Source of the DNA: Bradyrhizobiaceae bacterium
GTDB taxonomy: Bacteria > Pseudomonadota > Alphaproteobacteria > Rhizobiales > Xanthobacteraceae
Direction: 5' to 3'
Length of the DNA: 64,000 nucleotides
Assembly: GCA_020853885.1 (NCBI GenBank)
Contig: JADYXZ010000020.1
Coordinates: 378,707-442,706, forward strand
Position 1 is the stretch's first letter. Each line of letters starts with the position of its first letter. Made by a program: the position numbers and the translations under genes. The notes under the pieces are model-generated. The model was not told the origin of the DNA, made no database searches, and saw only the letters and a list, made by a program, of their open reading frames with translations. Positions 21,886 through 46,664 of the stretch are shown here, piece after piece.

Positions 21886-22911
21886 TCATACGTTGCGAGC
21901 GCCGAGCAGCCCATCGTGAATGTATTTTGGATCGAATTCATCTATTGCCGTCATAGGGTCGATCGGATCCCCCCACAATCTCCGTCTCTCGACTTCCGGC
22001 AGGGACCAAAATGCGCCGAGGGAGGTAGTATTCGCGAAATGCCGCCAGAGTTCTGGGTTCTCAATAATCCGGCTGAGAGATGTACGAGCAATATGCTCGA
22101 CGATGGCCTCTTTCTTTAGAAGATCCAATCTCACCTCGCGATCGAAGTTTTCCAAATATCTATTTTCGTGCAAGTGCTCGACCGCGCTCCGCACATCATA
22201 AATCTCGGCCATCAAATCGTGATGTCGAGGGCCGATGAACACTTCACTTCGGCTCTTGAAGTGTCGCTTCGTCTCACCACGACTTGGCAAGATGAGTCCA
22301 TCGATGCACCGGGAATATTGGTGGAGCCTTTCAAGAATATCAGGCGTGGTGCGTGTTTCCTGATAAAGGTGGAGCACGCGGAAAAAGCGCCAAGTGCCGT
22401 TCGGTATTGGCGCATCACCAAACATTTTGATCTTGCCCGCGATCCGCGCGCCGGTCGCCAAATCCTTTGCGGTTAGTGCCGGATAGGGTCTGAATGCGCA
22501 GGGTACCGGGATTTCAAAGTCGCCTTGCTGTCGAAAGTCTATTTCGCCCTTGTGCCGCGAACCAGTGAGAACGACAGGTCTATGCGCGGGGGCAAATGTA
22601 CTCGCGAGCAATAGGCCTGCATAAAAGAGGGAGACGAGGCGCTGAAGCAATTGGTTCTCACTGTCGAGAACGTCAGGTCGCTCTGATTTTATTTTGCTGA
22701 GTAAGAAAAGATTTGCTGCTTCCACCTCTTCAGTGCGTATCGTTCCAAGCCATTCCCTCCAATGTGATGGCACCTGAAAATGTGGTTCACTCACAACCCA
22801 TAGGCTGGGTGCAATTAATCCGTTTGGGAGATTATTCTCGACCTTCACGTCTAGACCGACAAAGGCGTACTTCTCACCTTCGGCAATCCAATCTACTCGC
22901 TCTCTAGCCAC
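21886..22911 (-). CDS. Hypothetical protein, 341 aa, AT-richer gene; C-terminal helical region with Rx4H (HEPN-like) motif
   Basis: This is the only long ORF in a region of visibly lower G+C. I recognise no family. The motif YDVRSAVEHLHENRY lies at residues 239-252. Confidence 0.7.
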   Translation of the reverse strand: MARERVDWIAEGEKYAFVGLDVKVENNLPNGLIAPSLWVVSEPHFQVPSHWREWLGTIRTEEVEAANLFLLSKIKSERPDVLDSENQLLQRLVSLFYAGLLLASTFAPAHRPVVLTGSRHKGEIDFRQQGDFEIPVPCAFRPYPALTAKDLATGARIAGKIKMFGDAPIPNGTWRFFRVLHLYQETRTTPDILERLHQYSRCIDGLILPSRGETKRHFKSRSEVFIGPRHHDLMAEIYDVRSAVEHLHENRYLENFDREVRLDLLKKEAIVEHIARTSLSRIIENPELWRHFANTTSLGAFWSLPEVERRRLWGDPIDPMTAIDEFDPKYIHDGLLGARNV

Positions 22912-22942
22912 TATTTTCTCCCGATCGTTATGAATCTGCCCG

Positions 22943-22948
22943 TATAAT
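22943..22948 (+). promoter_or_regulatory. TATAAT hexamer (possible -10) in the 80-bp divergent spacer of the islet
   Basis: The exact TATAAT lies 44 nt upstream of ATG 22992. No -35 element was evaluated. Confidence 0.25.
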
Positions 22949-22991
22949 TGCAGGGACGCCGTACATTGGTCTGTAAAACAACGGACAAGGT

Positions 22992-23564
22992 ATGGAATTT
23001 ATAGCTGTAACGATCATTTTGCTTTTCCTTCTGGCCCTAGCTGGAAAGTCGCGACGGCGTTTTTACGGTCCATCTCCAAGGACGCGTTCTCGGCTGCTTC
23101 AGCTTGGCCAGCAGCAAGGGCGCGACCTGACAGATGTTGGGCAACAACTGCACGCCGTTATGGCAGGTTCGTTCAACAGGCAGCGTGTGTTGAGCCCTTC
23201 AGAGTATCGTGTCTTCCAGATCGTCGAAGATGAAGTCGCGGCGCAACGTGCCGGCTATCGTGTCTTCGCGCAGACCAGCCTTGGCGAAATCCTTTCGTCG
23301 AACGATCGGGAGGCCTATAGCTCAATCAACAGCAAGCGCGTCGATATTCTCGTTATCGATTCCGGCGGTTGGCCATTCTTGGCTGTCGAGTTTCAAGGCG
23401 ATGGTCACTATCAAGGTACGGCGGCCGCGCGGGACGCCGTAAAAAAGGAAGCCCTACGTAAAGCTGGTGTCCGATACTTGGAATTCGGCGCAGCCGACAC
23501 CCCGGATCAAATAAAGTCTCGCCTCCGCGAACTCTTTGCCCAAGGGCGGGCAGGAGCGAGCTAG
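22992..23564 (+). CDS. DUF2726 domain protein (PD-(D/E)xK nuclease-like fold) with N-terminal TM helix
   Basis: N-terminal TM helix MEFIAVTIILLFLLALAG, then SEYRVFQIVED...SKRVDILVIDSGGWPFLAVEFQGDGHY...RDAVKKEALRKAGVRYLEF, which matches the DUF2726 pattern. Confidence 0.78.
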   Translation: MEFIAVTIILLFLLALAGKSRRRFYGPSPRTRSRLLQLGQQQGRDLTDVGQQLHAVMAGSFNRQRVLSPSEYRVFQIVEDEVAAQRAGYRVFAQTSLGEILSSNDREAYSSINSKRVDILVIDSGGWPFLAVEFQGDGHYQGTAAARDAVKKEALRKAGVRYLEFGAADTPDQIKSRLRELFAQGRAGAS

Positions 23565-23566
23565 CA

Positions 23567-25233
<1,667 letters not shown>

Positions 25234-26562: not shown

Positions 26563-26652
26563 GGAGAGGTGGCTGAGTGGTTGAAAGCACCGCACTCGAA
26601 ATGCGGCATACGGGTAACCGTATCGTGGGTTCGAATCCCACCCTCTCCGCCA
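26563..26652 (+). tRNA. tRNA-Ser (anticodon CGA), long variable arm, encoded CCA
   Basis: Acceptor stem GGAGAGG/CCTCTCC; anticodon stem-loop CCGCA-CT-CGA-AA-TGCGG; long variable arm; T-arm GTGGG-TTCGAAT-CCCAC. Ends are +/-1 nt. Confidence 0.9.
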
Positions 26653-36106: not shown

Positions 36107-37846
36107 CTATCCGGGCTCGGGCGTCTGTGCCTCCCGCCGGTTCATTTCGGCGCGCTCGGCGGCGACTTCGTCGAGGCGCTGGCGCAGTTCGGCGTAGCGG
36201 CCGATGAACTTGTCGAAGTCGTCCTTGCCGAGCGTCAGGAACAGGCAATAGTCGATGGCCGTGACATCGGCGATGCGGCGGGCGCCGGTGAGAAGCGCCA
36301 TCTCGCCGAAGAAGTCGCCGGGGCCGAGCTGGATCTTCTTGCCGCCGACGGCAACCTCGACCGCGCCGGAAGAGATGAAGAACATCTCGTTGCCGACGTC
36401 GCCCGCGCGGATGACGCGCTCGCCGGGAGCCGCCGAGCGCGGCTTGAACAGCGTGAGCAGTTCGGCGCGCTGATCGGCGGTGAGATCGCCGAATATGGCG
36501 AACTTGCTCATCAGTTGTGTCGGCTGCAGGCCGAGCTTGGCCGCGGGCTCGGCATGCTGCCGCAGCTCGGAGAGCTTGCGGTCGAGCCGCGCGAGGCGGG
36601 CGCGCCGAGCGGGTTCGCCGCGGGCGAGCAGGTCGAGCATTGCATTGATCCAGTCGGTCAGCGGTCTCACGGTGGCGAATGCGAGCGGGTTGAGCGTGAT
36701 GGACAAGAGGGCGCCGGCCAGAATCAGGTCCTTGCCTTCGGACGGCAGCAGGCCGAGCGCGATGCCGAGCCCGGCCAGAATAAAGGAAAATTCGCCGACC
36801 TGCGCGAGGCTCGCGGAAACCAGCGTGGCCGTGGAGATCGGGTATCCCAGCAGGAGAACGATGGCGAAGGCGGCCACCGACTTGCCGACCAGGATGATCA
36901 GAAGGACGGCAATCACCTCGATCGGCTCGCGGACGATGATCGAGGGATCGAACAGCATGCCGACCGAGACGAAGAACAGAACGGCGAAGGCGTTCTGCAG
37001 CGGCAGTGATTCTTCGGCGGCACGATGGCTGAGCTCGGATTTCGCGAGCACGATGCCGGCGCAGAACGCACCGAGCGCGAACGAGACGTCGAACAGCTTG
37101 GCGGAGCCGTAGGCGATGCCGAGCGCGATCGCGAGCACGGACAACGTGAACAGCTCGTGCGAGCCGGTGCGCGCCGCCTGACTGAGCAGCCAAGGCACGA
37201 TGCGCGGTCCGAGCATCAGGATGATGGCGCCGAAGACGCCGACCTTGCCGAGCGTGATCGCGACCGTCAGTAGGAGCTGTCCGTCGATGCCGCCCGCGCT
37301 GCCGTCGGGCGTCTTGCCGCCGAGCAGGCCGGCCAGCGCCGGCAGCAGGACGAGCGTCAGGACCATGGCGAGGTCCTCGACGATCAGCCAGCCGACGGCG
37401 ATGCGTCCGTTGGCCGTGCCGAGCGTATTGCGTTCGTCGAGCGCGCGCAGCAGCACGACGGTGCTGGCGACGGAAAGCGCGAGCCCGAGCACAAGGCCGC
37501 CGCCGAGCGTCCAGCCCCAGCTCATGGCGATGACGACACCGATCGCGGTGGCGACCGCGATCTGGCCGACGGCGCCGGGAATGGCGATCCAGCGCACGGC
37601 CAGAAGATCCGCCGTCGAAAAGTGCAGGCCGACACCGAACATCAGCAGGATGACGCCGACCTCGGAAAGTTCGGTGGCGAGGTGGGCGTCGACGGCAGGC
37701 CCGGGCGTGTAGGGGCCGACGATGATGCCGGCGACGAGATAGCCGACGAGCGGCGGCAGGCGCAGGCGGCTGGCAATGAAGCCGCACGCGAAAGCCAGGA
37801 CCAGGCCGAGCACGATCGTGACCAAGAGCGGTGTTTCGTGCGGCAT
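36107..37846 (-). CDS. CPA2 (Kef/YbaL-type) monovalent cation:proton antiporter fused to a C-terminal cyclic-nucleotide-binding domain
   Basis: The N-terminal ~390 aa are polytopic with LPPLVGYLVAGIIVGP. The C-terminal region GDVGNEMFFISSGAVEV...GDFFGEMALLTGARRIADVTA is a CAP/cNMP-binding signature. Confidence 0.9.
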   Translation of the reverse strand: MPHETPLLVTIVLGLVLAFACGFIASRLRLPPLVGYLVAGIIVGPYTPGPAVDAHLATELSEVGVILLMFGVGLHFSTADLLAVRWIAIPGAVGQIAVATAIGVVIAMSWGWTLGGGLVLGLALSVASTVVLLRALDERNTLGTANGRIAVGWLIVEDLAMVLTLVLLPALAGLLGGKTPDGSAGGIDGQLLLTVAITLGKVGVFGAIILMLGPRIVPWLLSQAARTGSHELFTLSVLAIALGIAYGSAKLFDVSFALGAFCAGIVLAKSELSHRAAEESLPLQNAFAVLFFVSVGMLFDPSIIVREPIEVIAVLLIILVGKSVAAFAIVLLLGYPISTATLVSASLAQVGEFSFILAGLGIALGLLPSEGKDLILAGALLSITLNPLAFATVRPLTDWINAMLDLLARGEPARRARLARLDRKLSELRQHAEPAAKLGLQPTQLMSKFAIFGDLTADQRAELLTLFKPRSAAPGERVIRAGDVGNEMFFISSGAVEVAVGGKKIQLGPGDFFGEMALLTGARRIADVTAIDYCLFLTLGKDDFDKFIGRYAELRQRLDEVAAERAEMNRREAQTPEPG

Positions 37847-37940: not shown

Positions 37941-40193
37941 GTGCCGAATGCCAACGATCTTGCGTTCGGGGTTGGTGCCATGCCCGTTCGCGCAAGGTTC
38001 ATGTTCATCGTTCTGGTGGGCGGTATCATCGCCGCCGCCGTGGCCATTCGCATGGCGGACCCCTTCATCATTCAGGCACTGCGGCTGATCGCATTCGACA
38101 CCTACCAGCGCCTCACCCCCCAACACTACGACCCCGACAGTCCCGTCCGGGTAGTCGACATTGACGAAGTTTCGCTGGCGAAGCTCGGCCAATGGCCCTG
38201 GCCGCGCACGGTCATGCGCGATCTGGTGAACCGGCTGGGCGGCCTTGGGGCGGCGGCCATCGCCTTCGACATCCAGTTCGCCGAGGCCGACCGGACCTCG
38301 CTCGAGCAGATCGCCCGCCGGCTGCCGCAGGAAGAGGCGGGGCGGCTCGCGGACATGATCATCGGCAACCTGACCAACGATGAATTTTTCGCCGCCGCCC
38401 TGAGAACCACGCCTAGCGTGCTGGCGATGGCGCTTTCACCCAACGGGGAGTTTGCGTTCAAGCCGAAAGCGGGCTTCGCCATCGCCGGCGACGATCCGCG
38501 TCCGTTCATTCCGAACTTCCGCGGCAGCGCCGGTAATCTTCCCATGCTCGAACAGGCGGCGTCCGGCGTCGGCTCGATCAACTGGATTCCGGACCGCGAT
38601 CAGGTACTGCGCCGCGTGGCGCTGATCTATCGGGTCGGCGACACGTTCGTGCCGACGCTGTTCATGGAGGCGCTCCGGGTGGCACAAGGTGCGTCGACCT
38701 ATGTGCTGAAGGCGTCGAATGCGAGCGGCGAGGGCGCGTTCGGACAGCATTCGGGGCTCAATCACATCCGCGTCGGTGATCTTGAAATTCCCACCGACGC
38801 CGACGGCGCGATCTGGCTGAAGTTTCGCCCGACCGCGCCGAAGGCATTCATCTCCGCGGCCGACGTGCTTGCCGGCGCGGTCTCGCAAGACGAGATCGAG
38901 GGAAGGATCATCCTCATCGGGTCGAGCGCGCCGGGCCTCCTCGACCTGCGCGCGACGCCGCTCGACGCGGTGGTGCCGGGCGTCGAAATCATCGCGCAAT
39001 CGATCGAGCACGTGGTCGCCGGCCGGTTCCTGACCCGGCCGGACTATGCGCTCGCGCTCGAACAGGCGGTCATCATTGCCTTCGGCATTCTCATTGCGCT
39101 GGTACTGGCGAAGGTGTCCGCGCGCGCGGCCGGCCTGATGGGCTTCTTCGCCATCTCCAGCCTGCTCGTTGGCGGCTGGCTCAGCTTCGACTATCTCGGG
39201 CTGCTGCTCGATCCGCTCTATCCGGCGCTCGCCCTTCTCCTGCTCACGGCGATCGCGACCTTCTATGTCTATCGGCAGGTGGAGGTGCAGCGCGGGGAGG
39301 TGCGGCGCGCATTCAGCCGCTACGTGTCGCCGGATGTCGTCAACGAACTGATCGTCAATCCCGACAAGCTCGAGCTCGGCGGCGAGATCAGGGAGCTAAC
39401 GCTCCTTTTCTGCGACGTGCGCAATTTCACGTCGATCTCGGAGCGGCTGAGCGCCACGGAGCTCACGCGTTTCATCAACGAGCTCTTGACGCCGCTGAGC
39501 GACGTGATCCTCCGCCACCGCGGCACGATCGACAAATACATGGGCGACGCGATCATGGCGTTTTGGAACGCGCCGCTGGCGTTGCCCGAGCACGCCGCTG
39601 CGGCGTGCCGTTCCGCCATCGACATGGCGGCGCGGATGCGGGAGCTTAACGAGCGCTGGCGCAAGGAGGCGGAAGCGGCGGGGCGGCCCTTTCAGGAAGT
39701 GCGGATCGGCATCGGCATCAATACAGGGGCCTGCTGCGTCGGCAATCTCGGGTCGGTGCAGCGGTTCGACTATTCGGCGATTGGCGACGAGGTGAACGTC
39801 GCCTCGCGCTTCGAGGGGCTGGCCAAGGTCTATGGGCTGACCGCGATCGTCGGCGAGCGGACGGTCCGGGCGGCGCCAGAATTCCCCGCCCTCGAGCTCG
39901 ATCTCGTGCGCGTGAAAGGGCGCGCGGCGCCGGCGCCGATCTATACCTTCAGCAACCTGCTGGGGGACAACGCGAATCGAATCGCCCGGCTGCAGGAGGC
40001 GCATACAGGCTTCCTGCGCGCCTATCGGGAAGGCCACTGGGATGAGGCGCGCAGAGCGATCGGGGAGTGCCGCAGCTTCGAGATCGCGGGTCTTGCGTAC
40101 TACTACTCGGTCTTCGAGAAGCGGATCGCGGCCTATCGCGTGAGTCCGCCGCCGCAGGACTGGGGCGGCGTGTTCACAGCGGAAGAAAAGTAG
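37941..40193 (+). CDS. CHASE2 sensor domain-containing class III adenylate/guanylate cyclase
   Basis: CHASE2 motif VVDIDEVSLAKLGQWPWPR, then TM helices, then the cyclase core LLFCDVRNFTSISE...GTIDKYMGDAIMAFWNAP...GDEVNVASR. The alternative start is ATG 37980. Confidence 0.9.
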   Translation: MPNANDLAFGVGAMPVRARFMFIVLVGGIIAAAVAIRMADPFIIQALRLIAFDTYQRLTPQHYDPDSPVRVVDIDEVSLAKLGQWPWPRTVMRDLVNRLGGLGAAAIAFDIQFAEADRTSLEQIARRLPQEEAGRLADMIIGNLTNDEFFAAALRTTPSVLAMALSPNGEFAFKPKAGFAIAGDDPRPFIPNFRGSAGNLPMLEQAASGVGSINWIPDRDQVLRRVALIYRVGDTFVPTLFMEALRVAQGASTYVLKASNASGEGAFGQHSGLNHIRVGDLEIPTDADGAIWLKFRPTAPKAFISAADVLAGAVSQDEIEGRIILIGSSAPGLLDLRATPLDAVVPGVEIIAQSIEHVVAGRFLTRPDYALALEQAVIIAFGILIALVLAKVSARAAGLMGFFAISSLLVGGWLSFDYLGLLLDPLYPALALLLLTAIATFYVYRQVEVQRGEVRRAFSRYVSPDVVNELIVNPDKLELGGEIRELTLLFCDVRNFTSISERLSATELTRFINELLTPLSDVILRHRGTIDKYMGDAIMAFWNAPLALPEHAAAACRSAIDMAARMRELNERWRKEAEAAGRPFQEVRIGIGINTGACCVGNLGSVQRFDYSAIGDEVNVASRFEGLAKVYGLTAIVGERTVRAAPEFPALELDLVRVKGRAAPAPIYTFSNLLGDNANRIARLQEAHTGFLRAYREGHWDEARRAIGECRSFEIAGLAYYYSVFEKRIAAYRVSPPPQDWGGVFTAEEK

Positions 40194-40236: not shown

Positions 40237-40650
40237 GTGCAGATGAAGGAACCAATCTTGTCGTCCCAAGTCCAGCTCGTTCTCGCGGCGCTCTTGATCC
40301 TGCAGATCAAGCATTTCGTGGCCGATTTCGTTCTGCAGACGCCGTACCAGTTTCTCAACAAGGGAATATACGGCCACCCCGGCGGGATCATTCATGCCGG
40401 AATCCATGCCATCGGCAGCCTGCTCGCCTTCTTTGTCATCACGCCGTCACTGCGGCTCGGGCTCGCGATCTTCGTCTGCGAGCTCGTGGTGCACTACCAC
40501 ATCGACTGGCTGAAAGAGGGCACGGTCAAGCGGCAGCAATGGGTTTTTCCGCAGGCCGAGTTCTGGTGGACATTCGGCGCCGACCAGGTCCTGCATCAAC
40601 TGACGTATCTCGCGATGGCGGGGGCGCTCGCCTGGGGCGCGGGCCTGTAG
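40237..40650 (+). CDS. DUF3307 domain membrane protein
   Basis: The IKHFVADFVLQT motif and a later HYHIDW are typical of DUF3307. Confidence 0.72.
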   Translation: MQMKEPILSSQVQLVLAALLILQIKHFVADFVLQTPYQFLNKGIYGHPGGIIHAGIHAIGSLLAFFVITPSLRLGLAIFVCELVVHYHIDWLKEGTVKRQQWVFPQAEFWWTFGADQVLHQLTYLAMAGALAWGAGL

Positions 40651-40676: not shown

Positions 40677-41822
40677 TCAGTGGCGCGACACCAGCATCAG
40701 GGTCGCGATGTGGTTGTCGTAGTCGCGCGCCGCGAGGTTCGAGTTGTTGCGCTCGAAGCGGTAGTCGGCGCGCAGATCGGTCTGATAGCCCATCACCTGA
40801 TGGAAGATCACGGTTGCACCGGGGACGACCGTGAGATCGCGCCGCTTCACCTCCACCGGCGGGATGACGGCTAGGTCGGCGGTCGGTCTGTAGTTGCGGC
40901 GGCTCACGGCGATGCTGCCGCCGACCGACACCTGCTCCAGCACGCGGCGATAATATTCGATCTTGCCGCCATATTCGGTGAAGCGGCCGGGCTGCACCTG
41001 CTCGGACGGCGTGAGCAGCGAGAAGCCGGTGCCGCCGATGTCGCTCCAGCGCAGCCAGGGCGTCAGGATGAAGACGTCGCCCTCGCCGAGCACGTTCGGA
41101 AACGAGAACTTGCCGGTGATGTCGGCAAACGCGCCGTCGTTGGACGGGAAGAAGTCATTGTAGGCGCGATAGCCGCCGCGCACGCGCACCATGTAGAACG
41201 CCCCTTCCAGATAGCTCTCGAAGGTGAGGTTCGCCGTCGCCTCGTTGAAGAAATGGCGGTGATCGAAATAGGCGGAGCCGCCGCCGAGTGCCGCATGCAT
41301 CGCGATGGTCGGCGTGACGTCGATCACCGGGCCGGTATAGGCGCCCGCATAGCCGTAGCTCAGGTCGCCGCTGTCGAAATAGATGTCGCCGAGCAGTTGC
41401 ACGAAGGTACGCCAGCGGGAGGCGTCGCCGAACTTGCGTTCGTCGCGGACCGTCACGCGCGCCAGCACAAGACCGGAATCGCTTTCGTCGGCGTTCAGCC
41501 GGCGGGGGTTTGATTCCCAGCCGGCGCCAAGCTCGGCGAGCACTTGCGTCGTGTCGGGCTGGAGCTTGCGGCGGATGCGCTGCAGCGCGCGATGCACGTC
41601 CGGGTGGTTCGGGTCGTTGACGAGCACGCGCTCGTAGGCGGAGAGCGCCTTGCGCAGCTCGCCGCGCTGTTCGGCGAGTTGGGCGTAGCGGAAATTGAGC
41701 TCGGAGTTGGTCGGGTTGCGGAGGATCTGGGCGTACAGCCGCTTCAGCTCGTCGGCGCTCACCGCCGACGCAAGTGAAGACAAGACCACCGCCAGGACGG
41801 CAAGCCGAAAGAACCGCGCCAC
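40677..41822 (-). CDS. Secreted protein with N-terminal TPR-like helical pair and C-terminal region with beta-barrel-like alternating pattern (putative outer-membrane protein)
   Basis: Signal peptide MARFFRLAVLAVVLSSLASAVSA-DE. The segment NFRYAQLAEQRGELRKALSAYERVLVNDPNHPDV is TPR-like. The remaining ~280 aa are rich in Y/G/R/D strand-like segments. GTG start after an AGGGGG SD. Confidence 0.72.
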   Translation of the reverse strand: MARFFRLAVLAVVLSSLASAVSADELKRLYAQILRNPTNSELNFRYAQLAEQRGELRKALSAYERVLVNDPNHPDVHRALQRIRRKLQPDTTQVLAELGAGWESNPRRLNADESDSGLVLARVTVRDERKFGDASRWRTFVQLLGDIYFDSGDLSYGYAGAYTGPVIDVTPTIAMHAALGGGSAYFDHRHFFNEATANLTFESYLEGAFYMVRVRGGYRAYNDFFPSNDGAFADITGKFSFPNVLGEGDVFILTPWLRWSDIGGTGFSLLTPSEQVQPGRFTEYGGKIEYYRRVLEQVSVGGSIAVSRRNYRPTADLAVIPPVEVKRRDLTVVPGATVIFHQVMGYQTDLRADYRFERNNSNLAARDYDNHIATLMLVSRH

Positions 41823-42066
41823 CCGAACCCCCTAAACGGCCGACCGCCGATCGAGACGGGTCAACATACTTTCCCGACCTGTCGAAACCAACATGGTGGT
41901 AACGAAGGAGAAAATCCGATGCAGCCGTGCCACACCCGCGGGAAAGGTAAAATTCCGACGTAAGTACCGCGGCTTACGCCTGAGCCGGGCGGCCCGACCG
42001 GCTGCGGCTGCGCCGTTGGCTGGCGAATCGTGTGCAAACCGGACCGAAAGAACGGACGCGCCGGCG

Positions 42067-43176
42067 CTATTTCCCGGCCGGCGCTTTCTGCGGCGTGCCG
42101 CGTTGCGGCTCCGGCTTGGCTGCGGGGTCTGCCGCATCGCCATCGTCGTCCGCCGGGTCATCGGGCGCGTCGCCGACGACGAAACAGGCGTGATAGAGCT
42201 CGCGCGGAATTTCCTTGTTCACCGCGCAATCGTGGATCGGCCGCAGATCTTCCTCGAGGCGGTAGTACATGTAAGGCCCGATCAGGAAGCGGCTCGCGCC
42301 GTCCGGCGATCCGCCGAAGCGGTCGATCTTGCCCTCGAGGCTCGGGTCGGCCTGGAGGATGGCCTGGCGCAGCTCATCGCTCTTGAGGAAGTTGTCGGGC
42401 AGTTGATCGAACGGCCCGTCGAAATAGTTGTTCACGCTGCTGCCGCCCTCGAACACGCCGATCAGAATCTTCCGCTTGAGCCGGTGCTCGTCATAGAAGG
42501 CGAAGCCGGTGCGCCGCGCGATCAGGATGCGGTTGGTGATGCGGGACGGAAACAGCTCGTCGGCGACCTTGATCGTCTCGTCGAGAATGTAGTGAAAGAT
42601 TTTCAGGCGCTTGTTGAAGACGAGGAAGAAACGAATGCCCGACTCGTCGAATACCGGGCCGAGGTATTGGTCGTCGGGGCCGAGCGCGGTCTTCGGCGGC
42701 GTCACTTTCGACAGATCGTTGAGCGCGAAGACGACGCTCTTCGCGCCGAGCGTCACGCGATAGACCAGCGGCTCGAGGCGCTCGACGTTGATGCCGTCCT
42801 CCTTGCCGAACACGCTGTAGTTCACCGCGTCGTCCTTCTGCCATTCGGTCAGCTCGACAAAATAAGCGAAGTGCAGCTTGCCTTCGTCGCGGTCCTTGGC
42901 GTCGAGGCGGATGTTGCCGGCGTAGCGCGTTCCGTTGTGGTAGAAATAAAAATAATAATAGTTCTCCGTTGGATAGACGCGCACGCGATCCGGCAGGCTC
43001 TCCAGCACGAACGCGAGCATCCCCTTCGGATCGTCGAGCGGCAGCACGGTCTTGCGCAAGACGTCCTCGATATATTGTTCGTTGGTGTAGAGACGCGGAC
43101 GATCCGCCGCGCTGGCGGATGCCATGACGAAGCTGCCCGCAAGCAGCGTGATGAGCGCAACGCAGACCCTGCTCAT
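42067..43176 (-). CDS. Secreted hypothetical protein, 369 aa, acidic Pro/Asp-rich tail
   Basis: Signal peptide MSRVCVALITLLAGSFVMASASA-AD. Contains the aromatic run YPTENYYYFYFYHNGTRYAGN. I recognise no family. Confidence 0.72.
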   Translation of the reverse strand: MSRVCVALITLLAGSFVMASASAADRPRLYTNEQYIEDVLRKTVLPLDDPKGMLAFVLESLPDRVRVYPTENYYYFYFYHNGTRYAGNIRLDAKDRDEGKLHFAYFVELTEWQKDDAVNYSVFGKEDGINVERLEPLVYRVTLGAKSVVFALNDLSKVTPPKTALGPDDQYLGPVFDESGIRFFLVFNKRLKIFHYILDETIKVADELFPSRITNRILIARRTGFAFYDEHRLKRKILIGVFEGGSSVNNYFDGPFDQLPDNFLKSDELRQAILQADPSLEGKIDRFGGSPDGASRFLIGPYMYYRLEEDLRPIHDCAVNKEIPRELYHACFVVGDAPDDPADDDGDAADPAAKPEPQRGTPQKAPAGK

Positions 43177-43258
43177 GCTCGATCTGTCCGGTTCGCCGGG
43201 TTCCTGTCGGCTATAAGCATGCCCGCTTTCGGAACGTTCCCGGCGTGCGTCCCGGCGG

Positions 43259-46200
43259 CTATCGGCGCCGCCGGGAGTCCTCGTCGTCTGACGGCTGCTT
43301 CTGTTCCAGTGTTTCCGACTTGGCCTTGTCGTGCTGCCGCGTTTTCTGCTGCTGTTGCTGGACTTTCGGCTGCGGGGGTTGCTGCACCTTGGGCGGCTGC
43401 TGAATCTTGAGCTGTTGCGGCTGCACCTTCGGCTGCGGGGGTTGCTGCACCTTGGGCGGCTGCTGAATCTTGAGCTGTTGCGGCTGCACCTTCGGCTGCG
43501 GCGCTTGCTGCAGCTTCGGCGCCGGCGGCTGGGTGATCTGCGGCTTGATCTTCGCCGAGACGTCCGGTGCGTGCACCGGCGGTTTCGGTTGGATCTTCAC
43601 CTTCTGGTCGGCAGCTGACTGCGCCACCGTGTGAGCCGGCTTCGGTGCCGGGAGCTTTATGTCCTTCTCGGCAGCACTCTTGGCAGGCGCGTGGACCGGC
43701 GGCTTCGGCTGGATCTTCACCTTCTGGTCGGCAGCGGACTGCGCCACCGTGTGAGCCGGCTTCGGTGCCGGGAGCTTTATGTCCTTCTCGGCAGCGCTCT
43801 TGGCGGGCGCGTGGACCGGCGGTTTGGGTTCGATCTTCACCTTCTGGTCGGCTATGGACTGCGCCACCGTATGAGCCGGCTTGGGCGCCGGGAGCTTCAC
43901 GTCCTTTTCGATCACGCTCATCTGCGGCGTGTGCACCGGCTTCGGGAGCGGCTGCTTCAGGCCCTTCTCGGCGGCGCTCTTCACCAGCGTGTGGACCGGA
44001 ACCGGCTCCGGAATTTTCAGGCCCTTGTCGACGGCGCTCTTGATCTGCGTGTGCACCGGTTTCGGCTCGGGCTGCTTGAAGCCCTTGTCGATGATGCTCT
44101 TCGCGACCGTGTGCACGGGCTTGGGATCCGGGAGCTTGAGCTTGTCGAGCAGGCTCTGCTTGGCGTTGTGCGAGCCGAACTGCTTGTGGCTGTTCTGCAG
44201 CAGATGGATTTTGGACGCTTTCGCGAAATGGCTCGCCACCGGCTGATGCGATCCGAACTTGTTGTGCGTGGCCTTGCTCGAGTGCGAGCCGAACTTGTTG
44301 TGGCTCCAGTTCAGATTGTGCGAGGCGTACTGGTAATGGCTCCAGTATTGCTGGTGCGAGCCATAGCGAATGTGGCTCATGGCCGGCCAATGCGACGCAA
44401 AGCGGTAGTGGCTCTGCTGCTGGCCGTGCGAGCCATAGCGCGAATGGCTGAAGGCGGGGTCGTGGCCGGGCTCGGCGATCAGCACCGGCGGCGGAGGCGG
44501 CAGGATGTAGGTGACGGCTGCCGGCGCCACGGCGCAGGTCTGGAAGACTGCGATGTCGCCGACGAGGGTCGCGTCGTTGCGCACGAACTCGTCGGTGACC
44601 GGCACGCCCGCCGGCGTCAGGTTGATGTTGATGTCGATCAGGTATGCTTCGTCGATGCCGACTGCCGTCGTCTGTCCGGAGGGGTCGATCTGTTCCGGCG
44701 CAAGGCCGAACGCGGCCGCCGGCGCCACTTCGGCATAGAAATCCTCGCGCAGGCCTTGTACGCCGTGCACTTCGGAATCGTCACCGGTCTCTTCACCGTT
44801 GATCGGGGGCAGGTTGCATGGGCCGTCCGGGGAGCACAATGAATCGCCGGTAATCCAGACGTAGTTGTCCGGCTGGTTCTGGTTCGCCGACCAGCGATTA
44901 GAATAACCCGGACCGAAGGAAGCGCCGCCCGCGCAATTTGCGCGCATGCGCGGCTCGCCTTCGTTGCCGCGGTCGTAGGAGCCGACGTCGTAACGGCCGA
45001 TGGGGCGCCAGACGCCGTCCTGATGCAACTCGTAGCGCAGCGTGCGCGCCTCATGCGGCGTCGCAAACGGGTTCTGCTCGCCGAGCCCCAAGTTGCGCAT
45101 GCCTCCGCGTTCCGCGACGAGCATCAAGGGCAGGCCCTCGCAGGTGGGGAAGGCGATGTCGCTCACCGGCTGGCTATGGCCGGCGCGGGCAATGGCTTCC
45201 GGGCTTGTGAAGAAATCCGGCAGCAGGAATTCACGGCGGACGCTGGTCGTGTTGAAGGCGCCGTCGGCGGTAAGGCCGACCGACCAGACGGAATTGCGCT
45301 TGTCCTCGTCATTGGCCGCGTCCCACGCCTGGCGATCAAACTGGGGTCCGCTCCAGACGGCGTAGAAGAGGCGGACTTCGCCGCTCGCCCTGTTGCGCCA
45401 GACGCCGACGCCCCAAACGCGGCGTCCGGACGGCGCGAGATTCCAGCACTCCGGCGAATTTTCGAAGCGGCCGGCCGGGCAGTCGGCGACCTGCGCGCGG
45501 CTCGCCGGGTCGAACGGGATCGGCGCGAGGCTGCCCTGCCGGTTCGCGCCCGCGTCGAAGAAGTTCGCGCGTCCGCGAACGCCGTGATCATAGACGCCGA
45601 GATCGGCACCGTCCGCGGCGCGGATGCGGTGGATCATGCCGGTTTCGAGATCGGAGACGTAGAGCTGCCGGTTCCAGCGGTCGTAGGTGATGTTGCCGAG
45701 CGAGGCGCCGGTATTCTGCCGCCCGCCGAGGGCGATCTGCGCGAATAGCTGCGGCTGATAATTGCTGGAAGCGCTGAGACGGTAGATCGCGCCGGGGCCG
45801 CCGGGACCCCACATGCCGGGCTGCCAATTCTGGTTGTCCGGTGTCCGGTGCAGCCCGAAGGCCGCGGTCGCGGCGACATAGATGTTCGGCCGCTGGGCAT
45901 CGTCAAAGGCAACGCCGAAGATCTGTCCCACGTCGGCGGCGGTCACGAACGCGCGCTGCGGCTCGCTGATCCAGTGCTGGCCCTGCGGCGGCTGGTTCGG
46001 ATTGCGTAGATCAATAACGCTGCCGACGACACCGCCCGGATTGATCACCTGCAGTGGCGCGCCACCCGGTCCGGGGACCGCCATCGTGCCGGAGAACCGC
46101 GTCACGAACGCTTCGCCGGGACGCGGCGGAAGCTGCTGCTGCGCGGCTGCCGGAGCGGTGAGCGCGAACAGGGCCGCGGCCGCAAGCGCAGTTGCCGCCG

Positions 46201-46273
46201 AACGCGGACCGAAATTCTTGCAGGCATGGTCGGACGTCGATCGAACCGCAATTCGAAAGCCGATGGCGTTCAT
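43259..46273 (-). CDS. Large secreted protein (~1004 aa): ~640-aa N-terminal globular region plus a His-rich short-repeat block, 20-aa KPVHT repeats and a Gln/Pro/Lys repeat tail
   Basis: Signal peptide ...ATALAAAALFALTAPAAA-QQ after ATG 46273 (the track ORF begins at 46381). The repeat structure can be read directly in both protein and DNA. Confidence 0.8.
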   Translation of the reverse strand: MNAIGFRIAVRSTSDHACKNFGPRSAATALAAAALFALTAPAAAQQQLPPRPGEAFVTRFSGTMAVPGPGGAPLQVINPGGVVGSVIDLRNPNQPPQGQHWISEPQRAFVTAADVGQIFGVAFDDAQRPNIYVAATAAFGLHRTPDNQNWQPGMWGPGGPGAIYRLSASSNYQPQLFAQIALGGRQNTGASLGNITYDRWNRQLYVSDLETGMIHRIRAADGADLGVYDHGVRGRANFFDAGANRQGSLAPIPFDPASRAQVADCPAGRFENSPECWNLAPSGRRVWGVGVWRNRASGEVRLFYAVWSGPQFDRQAWDAANDEDKRNSVWSVGLTADGAFNTTSVRREFLLPDFFTSPEAIARAGHSQPVSDIAFPTCEGLPLMLVAERGGMRNLGLGEQNPFATPHEARTLRYELHQDGVWRPIGRYDVGSYDRGNEGEPRMRANCAGGASFGPGYSNRWSANQNQPDNYVWITGDSLCSPDGPCNLPPINGEETGDDSEVHGVQGLREDFYAEVAPAAAFGLAPEQIDPSGQTTAVGIDEAYLIDININLTPAGVPVTDEFVRNDATLVGDIAVFQTCAVAPAAVTYILPPPPPVLIAEPGHDPAFSHSRYGSHGQQQSHYRFASHWPAMSHIRYGSHQQYWSHYQYASHNLNWSHNKFGSHSSKATHNKFGSHQPVASHFAKASKIHLLQNSHKQFGSHNAKQSLLDKLKLPDPKPVHTVAKSIIDKGFKQPEPKPVHTQIKSAVDKGLKIPEPVPVHTLVKSAAEKGLKQPLPKPVHTPQMSVIEKDVKLPAPKPAHTVAQSIADQKVKIEPKPPVHAPAKSAAEKDIKLPAPKPAHTVAQSAADQKVKIQPKPPVHAPAKSAAEKDIKLPAPKPAHTVAQSAADQKVKIQPKPPVHAPDVSAKIKPQITQPPAPKLQQAPQPKVQPQQLKIQQPPKVQQPPQPKVQPQQLKIQQPPKVQQPPQPKVQQQQQKTRQHDKAKSETLEQKQPSDDEDSRRRR
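43363..43520 (-). repeat. 63-bp in-frame tandem repeat (about 2.3 copies) encoding VQPQQLKIQQPPKVQQPPQPK
   Basis: The string tcggctgcggggg recurs at 43366, 43429 and 43492 (period 63). The first two copies are essentially identical. Confidence 0.85.
43571..44130 (-). repeat. 60-bp periodic in-frame tandem repeats (about 9-10 units). The first three 120-bp super-units are near-identical.
   Basis: gtg[c/g]acc recurs at 43571, 43691, 43811, 43931, 43991, 44051 and 44111. Units 43571-43690 and 43691-43810 differ at only a few positions. Confidence 0.9.
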
Positions 46274-46664
46274 TTGTGTTTTCCAGGCAGGAGGCGGGAA
46301 AGCGGGCGTGCAGTTATCCGTGGCGAAGCATAGAGGCCATTTGCTAACGGTGGAAGTCATCGCCGAGGCCGAATGAACCATCCATGAACGGCGGCGGCGC
46401 TTTTCTAGGACTTTGTTCTGATTGCAGTTTCCGGGTGCCGGGTTGGGCGGTCAGCGGGCAGCGACCTCCTGCGAAACCGCTCCGATTCCCGCCGGCGGGT
46501 TCGTCGTGCGGACGCGAAAGCTGCGTGGTTGCGCGGTTTGTGCGGTCTGTGCAATCAAACATTGCCTTCCTGTCCCGCGCACTTGCCGGCCCTGTTTCGG
46601 CCGTGCGCAAAACCAACGATGATCGGGCGCACACGGAGCGCCGGCGCACGCAAGGAGAAACATC

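Follow-up and report, generated by a model that had tools for sequence, protein, structure and literature searches.

Do three neighbouring genes for exported proteins, lying in the same orientation in a 64-kb stretch of DNA from a Bradyrhizobiaceae bacterium (contig JADYXZ010000020.1), encode one dedicated export system? The whole 64-kb stretch is referred to here as the window, all coordinates are positions in it, and its minus-strand genes, which include these three, read from right to left. In that order they encode a giant repeat protein of 1004 residues, a secreted protein of 369 residues, and a 381-residue protein that joins tetratricopeptide repeats (TPRs) to a predicted outer-membrane β-barrel. 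The original prediction, made from the sequence alone, cast the 381-residue protein as an outer-membrane component for export or display of the giant protein, and the 369-residue protein as an accessory or chaperone. Our analysis indicates that the three genes are probably not a single export machine. The reading that we favour, and consider reasonably probable, is that the region comprises two unrelated units, the barrel gene of a FecR/CHASE2 module and an operon for the giant and 369-residue proteins, which were juxtaposed by a rearrangement in one clade of the Xanthobacteraceae. What looked like a dedicated export system would most likely have arisen from this clade-specific rearrangement, in which the unrelated operon replaced the FecR gene that elsewhere neighbours the barrel gene; adjacency and common orientation by themselves would then have suggested a false operon at this locus.

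Gene structure and predicted fold of the barrel protein

In the list of open reading frames (ORFs), the barrel protein occupies positions 40677-41822 (381 residues, GTG start) and the 369-residue protein positions 42067-43176 (ATG start), both on the minus strand. They are joined on the same strand by a 1040-residue ORF at 43259-46381, in which a methionine at 46273 gives the 1004-residue form of the giant protein (43259-46273); alignments with its homologs open at approximately residues 30-37 of the 1040-residue form. Spacers of 82 bp separate the giant gene from the 369-residue gene and of 244 bp the latter from the barrel gene, and the ORF list and coordinates thus agree with the three closely spaced minus-strand genes that were first described. 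All three ORFs are real genes, as each has many full-length homologs (at least 165 for the 381-residue protein, at least 3598 for the 369-residue protein and at least 515 for the giant protein). Read by eye, each N-terminus resembles a signal peptide with a hydrophobic core and an AxA-type site (MARFFRLAVLAVVLSSLASAVSA/DE in the 381-residue protein, MSRVCVALITLLAGSFVMASASA/AD in the 369-residue protein and ...AATALAAAALFALTAPAAA/QQ in the giant protein), and none has a lipobox. The hydrophobic N-terminus is retained in homologs, in keeping with the exported character originally assigned to the three products.

The suggestion that the 381-residue protein combines a TPR pair with a strand-rich region was sound and can now be sharpened. 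Pfam and NCBIfam scans of the protein match its TPRs alone (residues 30-85). An AlphaFold (AF2) model calculated from an alignment of 37 homologs (pLDDT 85.9, pTM 0.75) predicts helices at residues 24-87, corresponding to approximately two TPRs after the signal peptide, followed by 14 long antiparallel strands that extend from residue 91 to residue 380 at the C-terminus. A Foldseek comparison of this model with the PDB retrieves outer-membrane barrels and nothing else, with the best TM-scores obtained for the 14-stranded monomeric pores OmpG and CymA, and with the TPR-porins BcsC and PelBC also among the matches. The consensus sequence of the barrel family ends in ...RF, and a C-terminus of this type is usual for outer-membrane proteins (OMPs). 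Because the AF2 model joins a TPR domain to a barrel and the Foldseek matches are outer-membrane barrels, the earlier structural guess was right, and the modelling supports the description of the 381-residue protein as a predicted TPR and outer-membrane β-barrel protein with a Slam-like layout. At 50% identity, its family forms 156 clusters (E<=1e-30). Among the longer proteins recovered in profile searches, apparent fusions contained unrelated OMP or OEP domains and no FecR domain, and they are probably merged gene calls. A candidate in-frame fusion of barrel and FecR domains in locus L068 was also rejected, as a stop codon separates its two parts.

Neighbours of the barrel gene

To define the usual surroundings of the barrel gene we fetched 80 genome loci that contain a barrel homolog with 28-72% identity to the window protein, and then searched these loci with the window proteins and with a FecR protein encoded next to a distant barrel homolog. 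The loci derive from Xanthobacteraceae, Pseudorhodoplanes, Pseudolabrys, Bauldia, Hyphomicrobiaceae, Odyssella, Reyranellales and Rhodospirillaceae; FecR genes were counted in the 63 loci whose flanks reach 1.5 kb or more on either side, and CHASE2 and DUF3307 genes in the 50 loci that extend 4 kb or more downstream. A gene for a secreted FecR-domain protein (median length ~270 residues) adjoins the barrel gene in 59 of the 63 loci, being positioned divergently upstream in 43 of them and downstream on the same strand in 16, mostly at a distance of 3-100 bp. Near the barrel homolog there is also a CHASE2 adenylate cyclase in 22 of the 50 loci and a DUF3307 gene in 17. The 369-residue and giant genes are found near the barrel gene in only 4 of the 63 loci, which are its closest relatives and are exactly the four that have no FecR gene. 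Elsewhere, then, the usual neighbour of the barrel gene is a FecR gene, often accompanied by a CHASE2 cyclase, and this distribution does not support the proposal that the barrel serves the giant protein.

In the window itself, the side of the barrel gene that faces away from the trio retains the CHASE2 association. A CHASE2-domain adenylate cyclase of 750 residues is encoded on the plus strand at 37941-40193 (Pfam CHASE2 3e-56, Guanylate_cyc 4e-19), and downstream of it lies the gene for a small DUF3307 membrane protein, identified by Pfam (40237-40650, plus strand); this gene and the barrel gene are convergent, and their stop codons are 26 bp apart. The cyclase gene is adjoined by a minus-strand gene for a CPA2 cation/proton antiporter with a C-terminal cyclic nucleotide monophosphate (cNMP)-binding domain (36107-37846; Pfam Na_H_Exchanger 5.9e-50, cNMP_binding 1.8e-18). 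This synteny is kept in several loci, and the antiporter is a plausible candidate for an effector gated by cyclic AMP (cAMP). An amidohydrolase gene and a gene for a thiamine pyrophosphate (TPP) enzyme complete the neighbourhood of the barrel gene on the window. In cultured alphaproteobacteria the same components are organised as an operon, with the order TPR-OMP, FecR, CHASE2 cyclase and DUF3307 on Paracoccus pAMI5, and TPR-OMP, FecR and CHASE2 cyclase in Shinella; in Paracoccus a gene for a cNMP-binding patatin flanks the operon in place of the antiporter. When the Paracoccus TPR-OMP is aligned to the profile of the barrel family with hhalign, the TPRs alone align. DUF3307 follows the CHASE2 cyclase in Paracoccus pAMI5 as it does in the window, and the module may include it as a fourth component.

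The 381-residue protein is best read as supplying the TPRs and barrel to a receptor module that resembles NsrA in split form, because of the adjacent DUF3307 and CHASE2 genes, the Paracoccus and Shinella operons, the gene layout of NsrA and CyaK in Sinorhizobium meliloti, and a gene cluster in Campylobacterota, the last two of which are described below. In such a module the 381-residue protein would partner the convergently encoded CHASE2 cyclase (37941-40193) and DUF3307, and not the products of its two upstream neighbours. On the model of NsrA, the surface loops or the lumen of the barrel would receive an external cue, which the periplasmic TPRs would relay to the CHASE2 domain, normally via the small secreted FecR-domain protein. 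The CHASE2 domain of the cyclase would then raise cAMP, for which the neighbouring cNMP-gated antiporter is a plausible effector. In the clade to which the window belongs, the FecR gene would no longer be adjacent to the barrel gene. We infer this signalling role for the barrel from protein architecture and gene context.

Several observations weigh against this assignment. Approximately half of the loci with both barrel and FecR genes have no CHASE2 cyclase within reach. The most serious weakness is the lack of a FecR gene: neither tblastn nor a family-specific hidden Markov model (HMM) found one in the 64-kb window or in the four loci closest to it, and the module is therefore either incomplete here or has its partner located elsewhere. 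The arrangement of the trio is kept across the whole clade, in which the barrel proteins are 59-88% identical, so that a newly acquired functional link between the three genes would also be conceivable. The functions that we give below to the giant and 369-residue proteins are guesses. Finally, hhalign detected no barrel-to-barrel homology between the profile of the 381-residue protein's family and the single NsrA sequence, aligning 41 TPR columns with a probability of 2.6%. The claim is therefore that the 381-residue protein works like NsrA, and not that it belongs to the same family, and it rests on architecture and context.

The missing FecR partner, which was not found within 20-40 kb, could also mean that the barrel gene of the window was left behind as an orphan when a FecR module was dismantled, or else encodes a general diffusion pore with no specific partner among its neighbours. 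The latter possibility is in line with the best structural matches of the model, OmpG and CymA, both of which are monomeric pores. We consider this explanation quite improbable, as the gene is full length and conserved across its clade at the level of identity given above, the elements upstream of it are conserved, and the synteny with the CHASE2 and DUF3307 genes is retained.

The giant protein and its 369-residue partner

The two genes upstream of the barrel gene probably form a unit of their own. The 369-residue protein (42067-43176, minus strand) is a member of a large uncharacterised family of secreted proteins with at least 3598 homologs, typically ~60% identical, in which no Pfam domain was found. 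Neither it nor the giant protein matched any sequence in Pfam, NCBIfam, PHROGs or the PDB, in searches with single sequences or with profiles, which agrees with their first description as proteins of no characterised family. The alignment of the 369-residue family contains 83 invariant columns, two of them cysteines, and includes the motifs YPTENYYYF and DGPFDQLPDNF. Its AF2 model (pLDDT 76.8) consists of a β-rich core and a disordered basic tail of lysine and proline residues (residues 337-369), and a Foldseek search of the PDB and BFVD with this model returned no significant match (best E ~0.04, TM-score ~0.1). The 369-residue protein might represent a fold family of its own, whichever way the barrel protein is read.

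The giant protein (43259-46273, minus strand) begins with a conserved domain of ~560 residues that is 45-60% identical across the family, and this domain is followed by tails that vary widely in length and content. In the window protein, a PPPPP hinge leads into a phased array of xx[YFW][GAW]SH hexapeptides (residues 604-702; 44168-44464, minus strand), in which the S/T-H positions recur every 6 residues exactly, 13 times. In an alignment of 34 homologs the serine and histidine columns are invariant or nearly so, and the array may display these His and Ser residues as a ladder along a repetitive fold; we know of no described counterpart. Ten 20-residue repeats of the PKPVHT type (43544-44143, minus strand) come next, which Tandem Repeats Finder (TRF) reports as 60/120-bp units, and the protein ends in a PQ-rich tail. 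The 120-bp tandem repeat in the DNA (43569-43959, minus strand; 2.8-3.1 copies, 83-91% identity) encodes paired 20-residue PKPVHT units, and from this pattern in the sequence the PKPVHT repeats look like a recent expansion at the DNA level. The histidine-rich repeats noted in the original prediction are thus confirmed and resolved into distinct types. Some homologs of the giant protein (P0294, P0322, P0329 and others) end in a Peptidase_S74 (endosialidase/intramolecular-chaperone) domain, which suggests fibrous, possibly trimeric proteins, and the layout of the window protein, with an N-terminal head, an SH ladder and a Pro/Lys/Gln spacer, would be that of a fibre. A C-terminal Peptidase_S74 domain is also present in some of the FecR proteins encoded next to barrel genes (L066 1213-2361; L072 11131-12183); its presence in both groups of proteins could be a coincidence or a common feature of export or assembly.

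The pairing of the giant and 369-residue genes was examined in 80 metagenome loci anchored on the 369-residue gene, 51 of which have enough sequence for the giant gene to be counted. The giant gene is directly upstream of the 369-residue gene in 23 of these 51 loci, whereas a barrel gene is near the 369-residue gene in 4 of the 80, all of them close relatives of the window. The same pair occurs in distant Hyphomicrobiales genomes (45-52% identity), where the two genes are 5-37 bp apart in unrelated flanks that contain no barrel gene. In approximately half of the loci the 369-residue gene stands alone, sometimes beside Macro or glucokinase genes, which are also nearby in the window. Co-occurrence of all three genes is consequently restricted to the closest clade, whether loci are anchored on the barrel gene in genomes or on the 369-residue gene in metagenomes. 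A role for the 369-residue protein as an accessory or chaperone in barrel-mediated export is likewise disfavoured, since its pairing with the giant protein is widespread without a barrel. We infer that the giant and 369-residue genes constitute an operon of their own, whose two products are exported by Sec, and our guess is that the giant protein is a metal- or surface-binding fibre of the envelope or extracellular space, with the 369-residue protein as its conserved partner.

The DNA between the 369-residue and barrel genes also points to separate transcription. In locus L009, whose barrel protein is 72% and whose 369-residue homolog is 80% identical to those of the window, the two genes are separated by an opposite-strand gene for a FadB-like protein of 734 residues (L009 7510-9714). 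The intergenic sequences that precede the barrel gene in nine orthologous loci of the clade are unalignable except for two conserved blocks. The first block is a σ70-like footprint, TTGGTT-N17-TATGTT, located ~40 nt ahead of the GTG codon at which the barrel gene starts (41863-41891, minus strand); as TTGGyT-N17-TATGTT it is kept, with the exact 17-nt spacing, in all nine spacers, and its position and conservation suggest that it is the promoter of the barrel gene. The second block is a 19-nt box, GTGTGGCACGGCTGCATCG (41917-41935, minus strand), which is possibly a regulator site. It is kept in the nine loci of this clade, where the barrel gene is preceded by the 369-residue gene, and is missing in other clades. 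A terminator hairpin was rejected for this box because it has no conserved structure (alifold -0.5), and by eye it matches neither the spacing of a σ54 site nor the consensus for CRP, Clr or FixK. A generic scan for promoters and terminators gave counts at the level of shuffled sequence. The trio had been treated as one unit, and both the opposite-strand insertion in L009 and the promoter-like footprint of the barrel gene speak for separate units. In locus L010 (637-2948), two tandem paralogs of the 369-residue gene lie between the tail of the giant protein and the barrel gene.

These results bear directly on the idea that the 381-residue protein is a dedicated translocator, similar to Slam and the type 11 secretion system (T11SS), which exports or displays the giant protein with the 369-residue protein as accessory or chaperone. 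Its Slam-like combination of TPRs and 14 strands, with weak matches to SlipAM and TPR_Slam, would suit such a role, and the genes for T11SS OMPs are usually encoded beside those for their cargo (PMC12282271). Furthermore, the FecR neighbour has been replaced by exactly the 369-residue and giant genes, in the same orientation, at eight related loci, and the Peptidase_S74 domain is found in both barrel-adjacent FecR proteins and giant homologs. We nevertheless regard this explanation as very unlikely indeed. The three genes occur together, as it requires, in just 4 of 63 and 4 of 80 loci, all from the closest clade; the giant and 369-residue pair is widespread without the barrel, an opposite-strand gene intervenes in L009, and a promoter-like footprint of its own is conserved ahead of the barrel gene. 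In addition, neither of the two candidate cargo proteins has a C-terminal barrel similar to TbpBBD, as judged from the lack of a Pfam match and from C-termini that are of low complexity or disordered.

Elsewhere in the window, the GC content of ~64-71% falls to 0.56 at 22001-24000, and there is a tRNA gene at 26563-26649; the boundary of an island may lie here.

Comparison with Slam, TPR-porins and NsrA

In OMPs of the DUF560/T11SS family a periplasmic TPR domain at the N-terminus precedes a barrel of 14 strands, and these proteins are Sec-dependent and need no inner-membrane partner (PMC8406197). Their genes usually adjoin those of their cargo, whose signature is a C-terminal 8-stranded barrel of the TbpBBD/lipoprotein-C type (PMC12282271). 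The 381-residue protein resembles Slam in having an N-terminal TPR domain followed by a 14-stranded barrel, and it would likewise depend on Sec and require no partner in the inner membrane; in this respect the likeness to Slam/DUF560 that was originally drawn holds; it does not extend to family membership, as the PF04575 (SlipAM) threshold is not reached. The match of the 381-residue protein to PF04575 has E=0.15 and 12 bits, below the Pfam cut-off of 22, and the matches to PF04575 in 13 of 37 and 16 of 76 members of the barrel family are also sub-threshold (best E=7.9e-5), as are the recurrent matches to PF24575 (TPR_Slam) across the family. OMP_b-brl and BBP2_2 of the MBB clan match the family as well as SlipAM or better. 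Gene context differs as well: no cargo protein ending in an 8-stranded barrel is encoded beside the 381-residue protein, and the conserved neighbours of the barrel family are signalling proteins.

A different connection to type 11 secretion is suggested by the FecR partners of other lineages. In Paracoccus and Shinella, the FecR proteins encoded between the TPR-OMP and the CHASE2 cyclase (L089 5898-7865; L174 3314-5863) are long and end in a domain that matches TbpB_B_D and FHBP_C below threshold, the kind of domain by which T11SS cargo is recognised. In the PDB, the C-terminus of the Shinella protein matches Neisseria NHBA (E=0.0036) and ~16 chains of fHbp, at E=0.004-0.05 overall. The barrel family could accordingly be a divergent T11SS-like secretin for FecR-protein cargo, whose display or threading at the outer membrane would couple to the CHASE2 cyclase, with the cargo gene moved or lost in the window, and the 3-100 bp gaps from barrel to FecR genes indicate co-translation. 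We judge this mechanism unlikely, but keep it as a rival to the proposed signalling module, since the short FecR partners of the barrel family (median ~270 residues) have no TbpBBD-like domain. Other evidence also counts against it: the Paracoccus TPR-OMP aligns to the barrel family over the TPRs alone, every Slam-related match is under the Pfam cut-offs, and a FecR domain displayed on the cell surface would be unable to reach the periplasmic CHASE2 domain. A search of the literature for work combining DUF560 and FecR found none. By a further extension, for which we see only a slim chance, the barrel family would be an unrecognised Slam/T11SS-like branch for FecR proteins, into which the 369-residue and His-rich pair was swapped as new clients in this clade. 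If true, such a branch would tie the display of proteins at the outer membrane to CHASE2/cAMP signalling, and it would offer a natural exchange of cargo in a type-11-like system.

The TPR-porins BcsC, PgaA and PelB likewise join TPRs to an outer-membrane barrel, and such porins are among the Foldseek matches of the 381-residue protein. They have long TPR arrays, barrels of 16-18 strands and adjacent synthase genes, whereas the 381-residue protein has approximately two TPRs and 14 strands, and its gene has no synthase neighbour.

NsrA is, to our knowledge, the only outer-membrane partner of CHASE2 sensors that has been studied so far. The reading of the 381-residue protein as part of a split receptor module would add a widespread version in which a small TPR and 14-strand barrel protein is accompanied by a separate FecR protein, with at least 156 clusters (50% identity) in Hyphomicrobiales and relatives, and it would provide a simpler system for probing how an outer-membrane barrel communicates with a CHASE2 cyclase. 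The C-terminal barrels on the FecR partners of some lineages, which resemble those of Slam cargo, hint that type 11 secretion and cAMP signalling may be connected. The 369-residue family, with its thousands of members, and the protein with SH hexapeptides are unannotated envelope proteins that merit family descriptions.

In S. meliloti, NsrA is needed for perception of the nodule signal by the CHASE2 cyclases CyaK and CyaD1/CyaD2 (PMC7529298, PMC13001267), and its barrel region spans residues ~600-1200 (PMC7529298). Our domain scan of NsrA (1219 residues) shows a FecR domain, TPRs and a C-terminal barrel, and its gene lies directly upstream of that for the CHASE2 cyclase CyaK. There are clear differences from the window: NsrA is a single chain with a far larger barrel, whereas the homolog loci combine a TPR and 14-strand protein of the 381-residue type with a separate FecR protein of ~270 residues; NsrA carries a FecR domain, whereas the window has none in the barrel chain or in an adjacent gene; and the NsrA gene is positioned upstream of its cyclase, whereas the barrel gene of the window is convergent with its own. 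Both proteins nevertheless contain TPRs followed by a C-terminal outer-membrane β-barrel and have an adjacent CHASE2 adenylate cyclase gene, and the NsrA set of FecR, TPRs and barrel is matched in 59 of the 63 homolog loci, in which the adjacent gene supplies FecR.

CHASE2 proteins are associated with FecR domains in other bacteria as well. FecR-CHASE2 kinase operons occur in Burkholderia (PMC5192318), and a cluster in Campylobacterota encodes a CHASE2 cyclase, a phosphodiesterase, a FecR-domain OMP and a TPR protein (PMC9239204). In the latter cluster the FecR domain is located on the OMP, the TPRs are on a separate protein and a phosphodiesterase is present, whereas the window has no adjacent phosphodiesterase gene. 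The Campylobacterota cluster comes from a different phylum and is likened to the module by domain association and not by homology; it shares with the module the association of a CHASE2 cyclase with FecR, TPRs and an OMP (PMC9239204).

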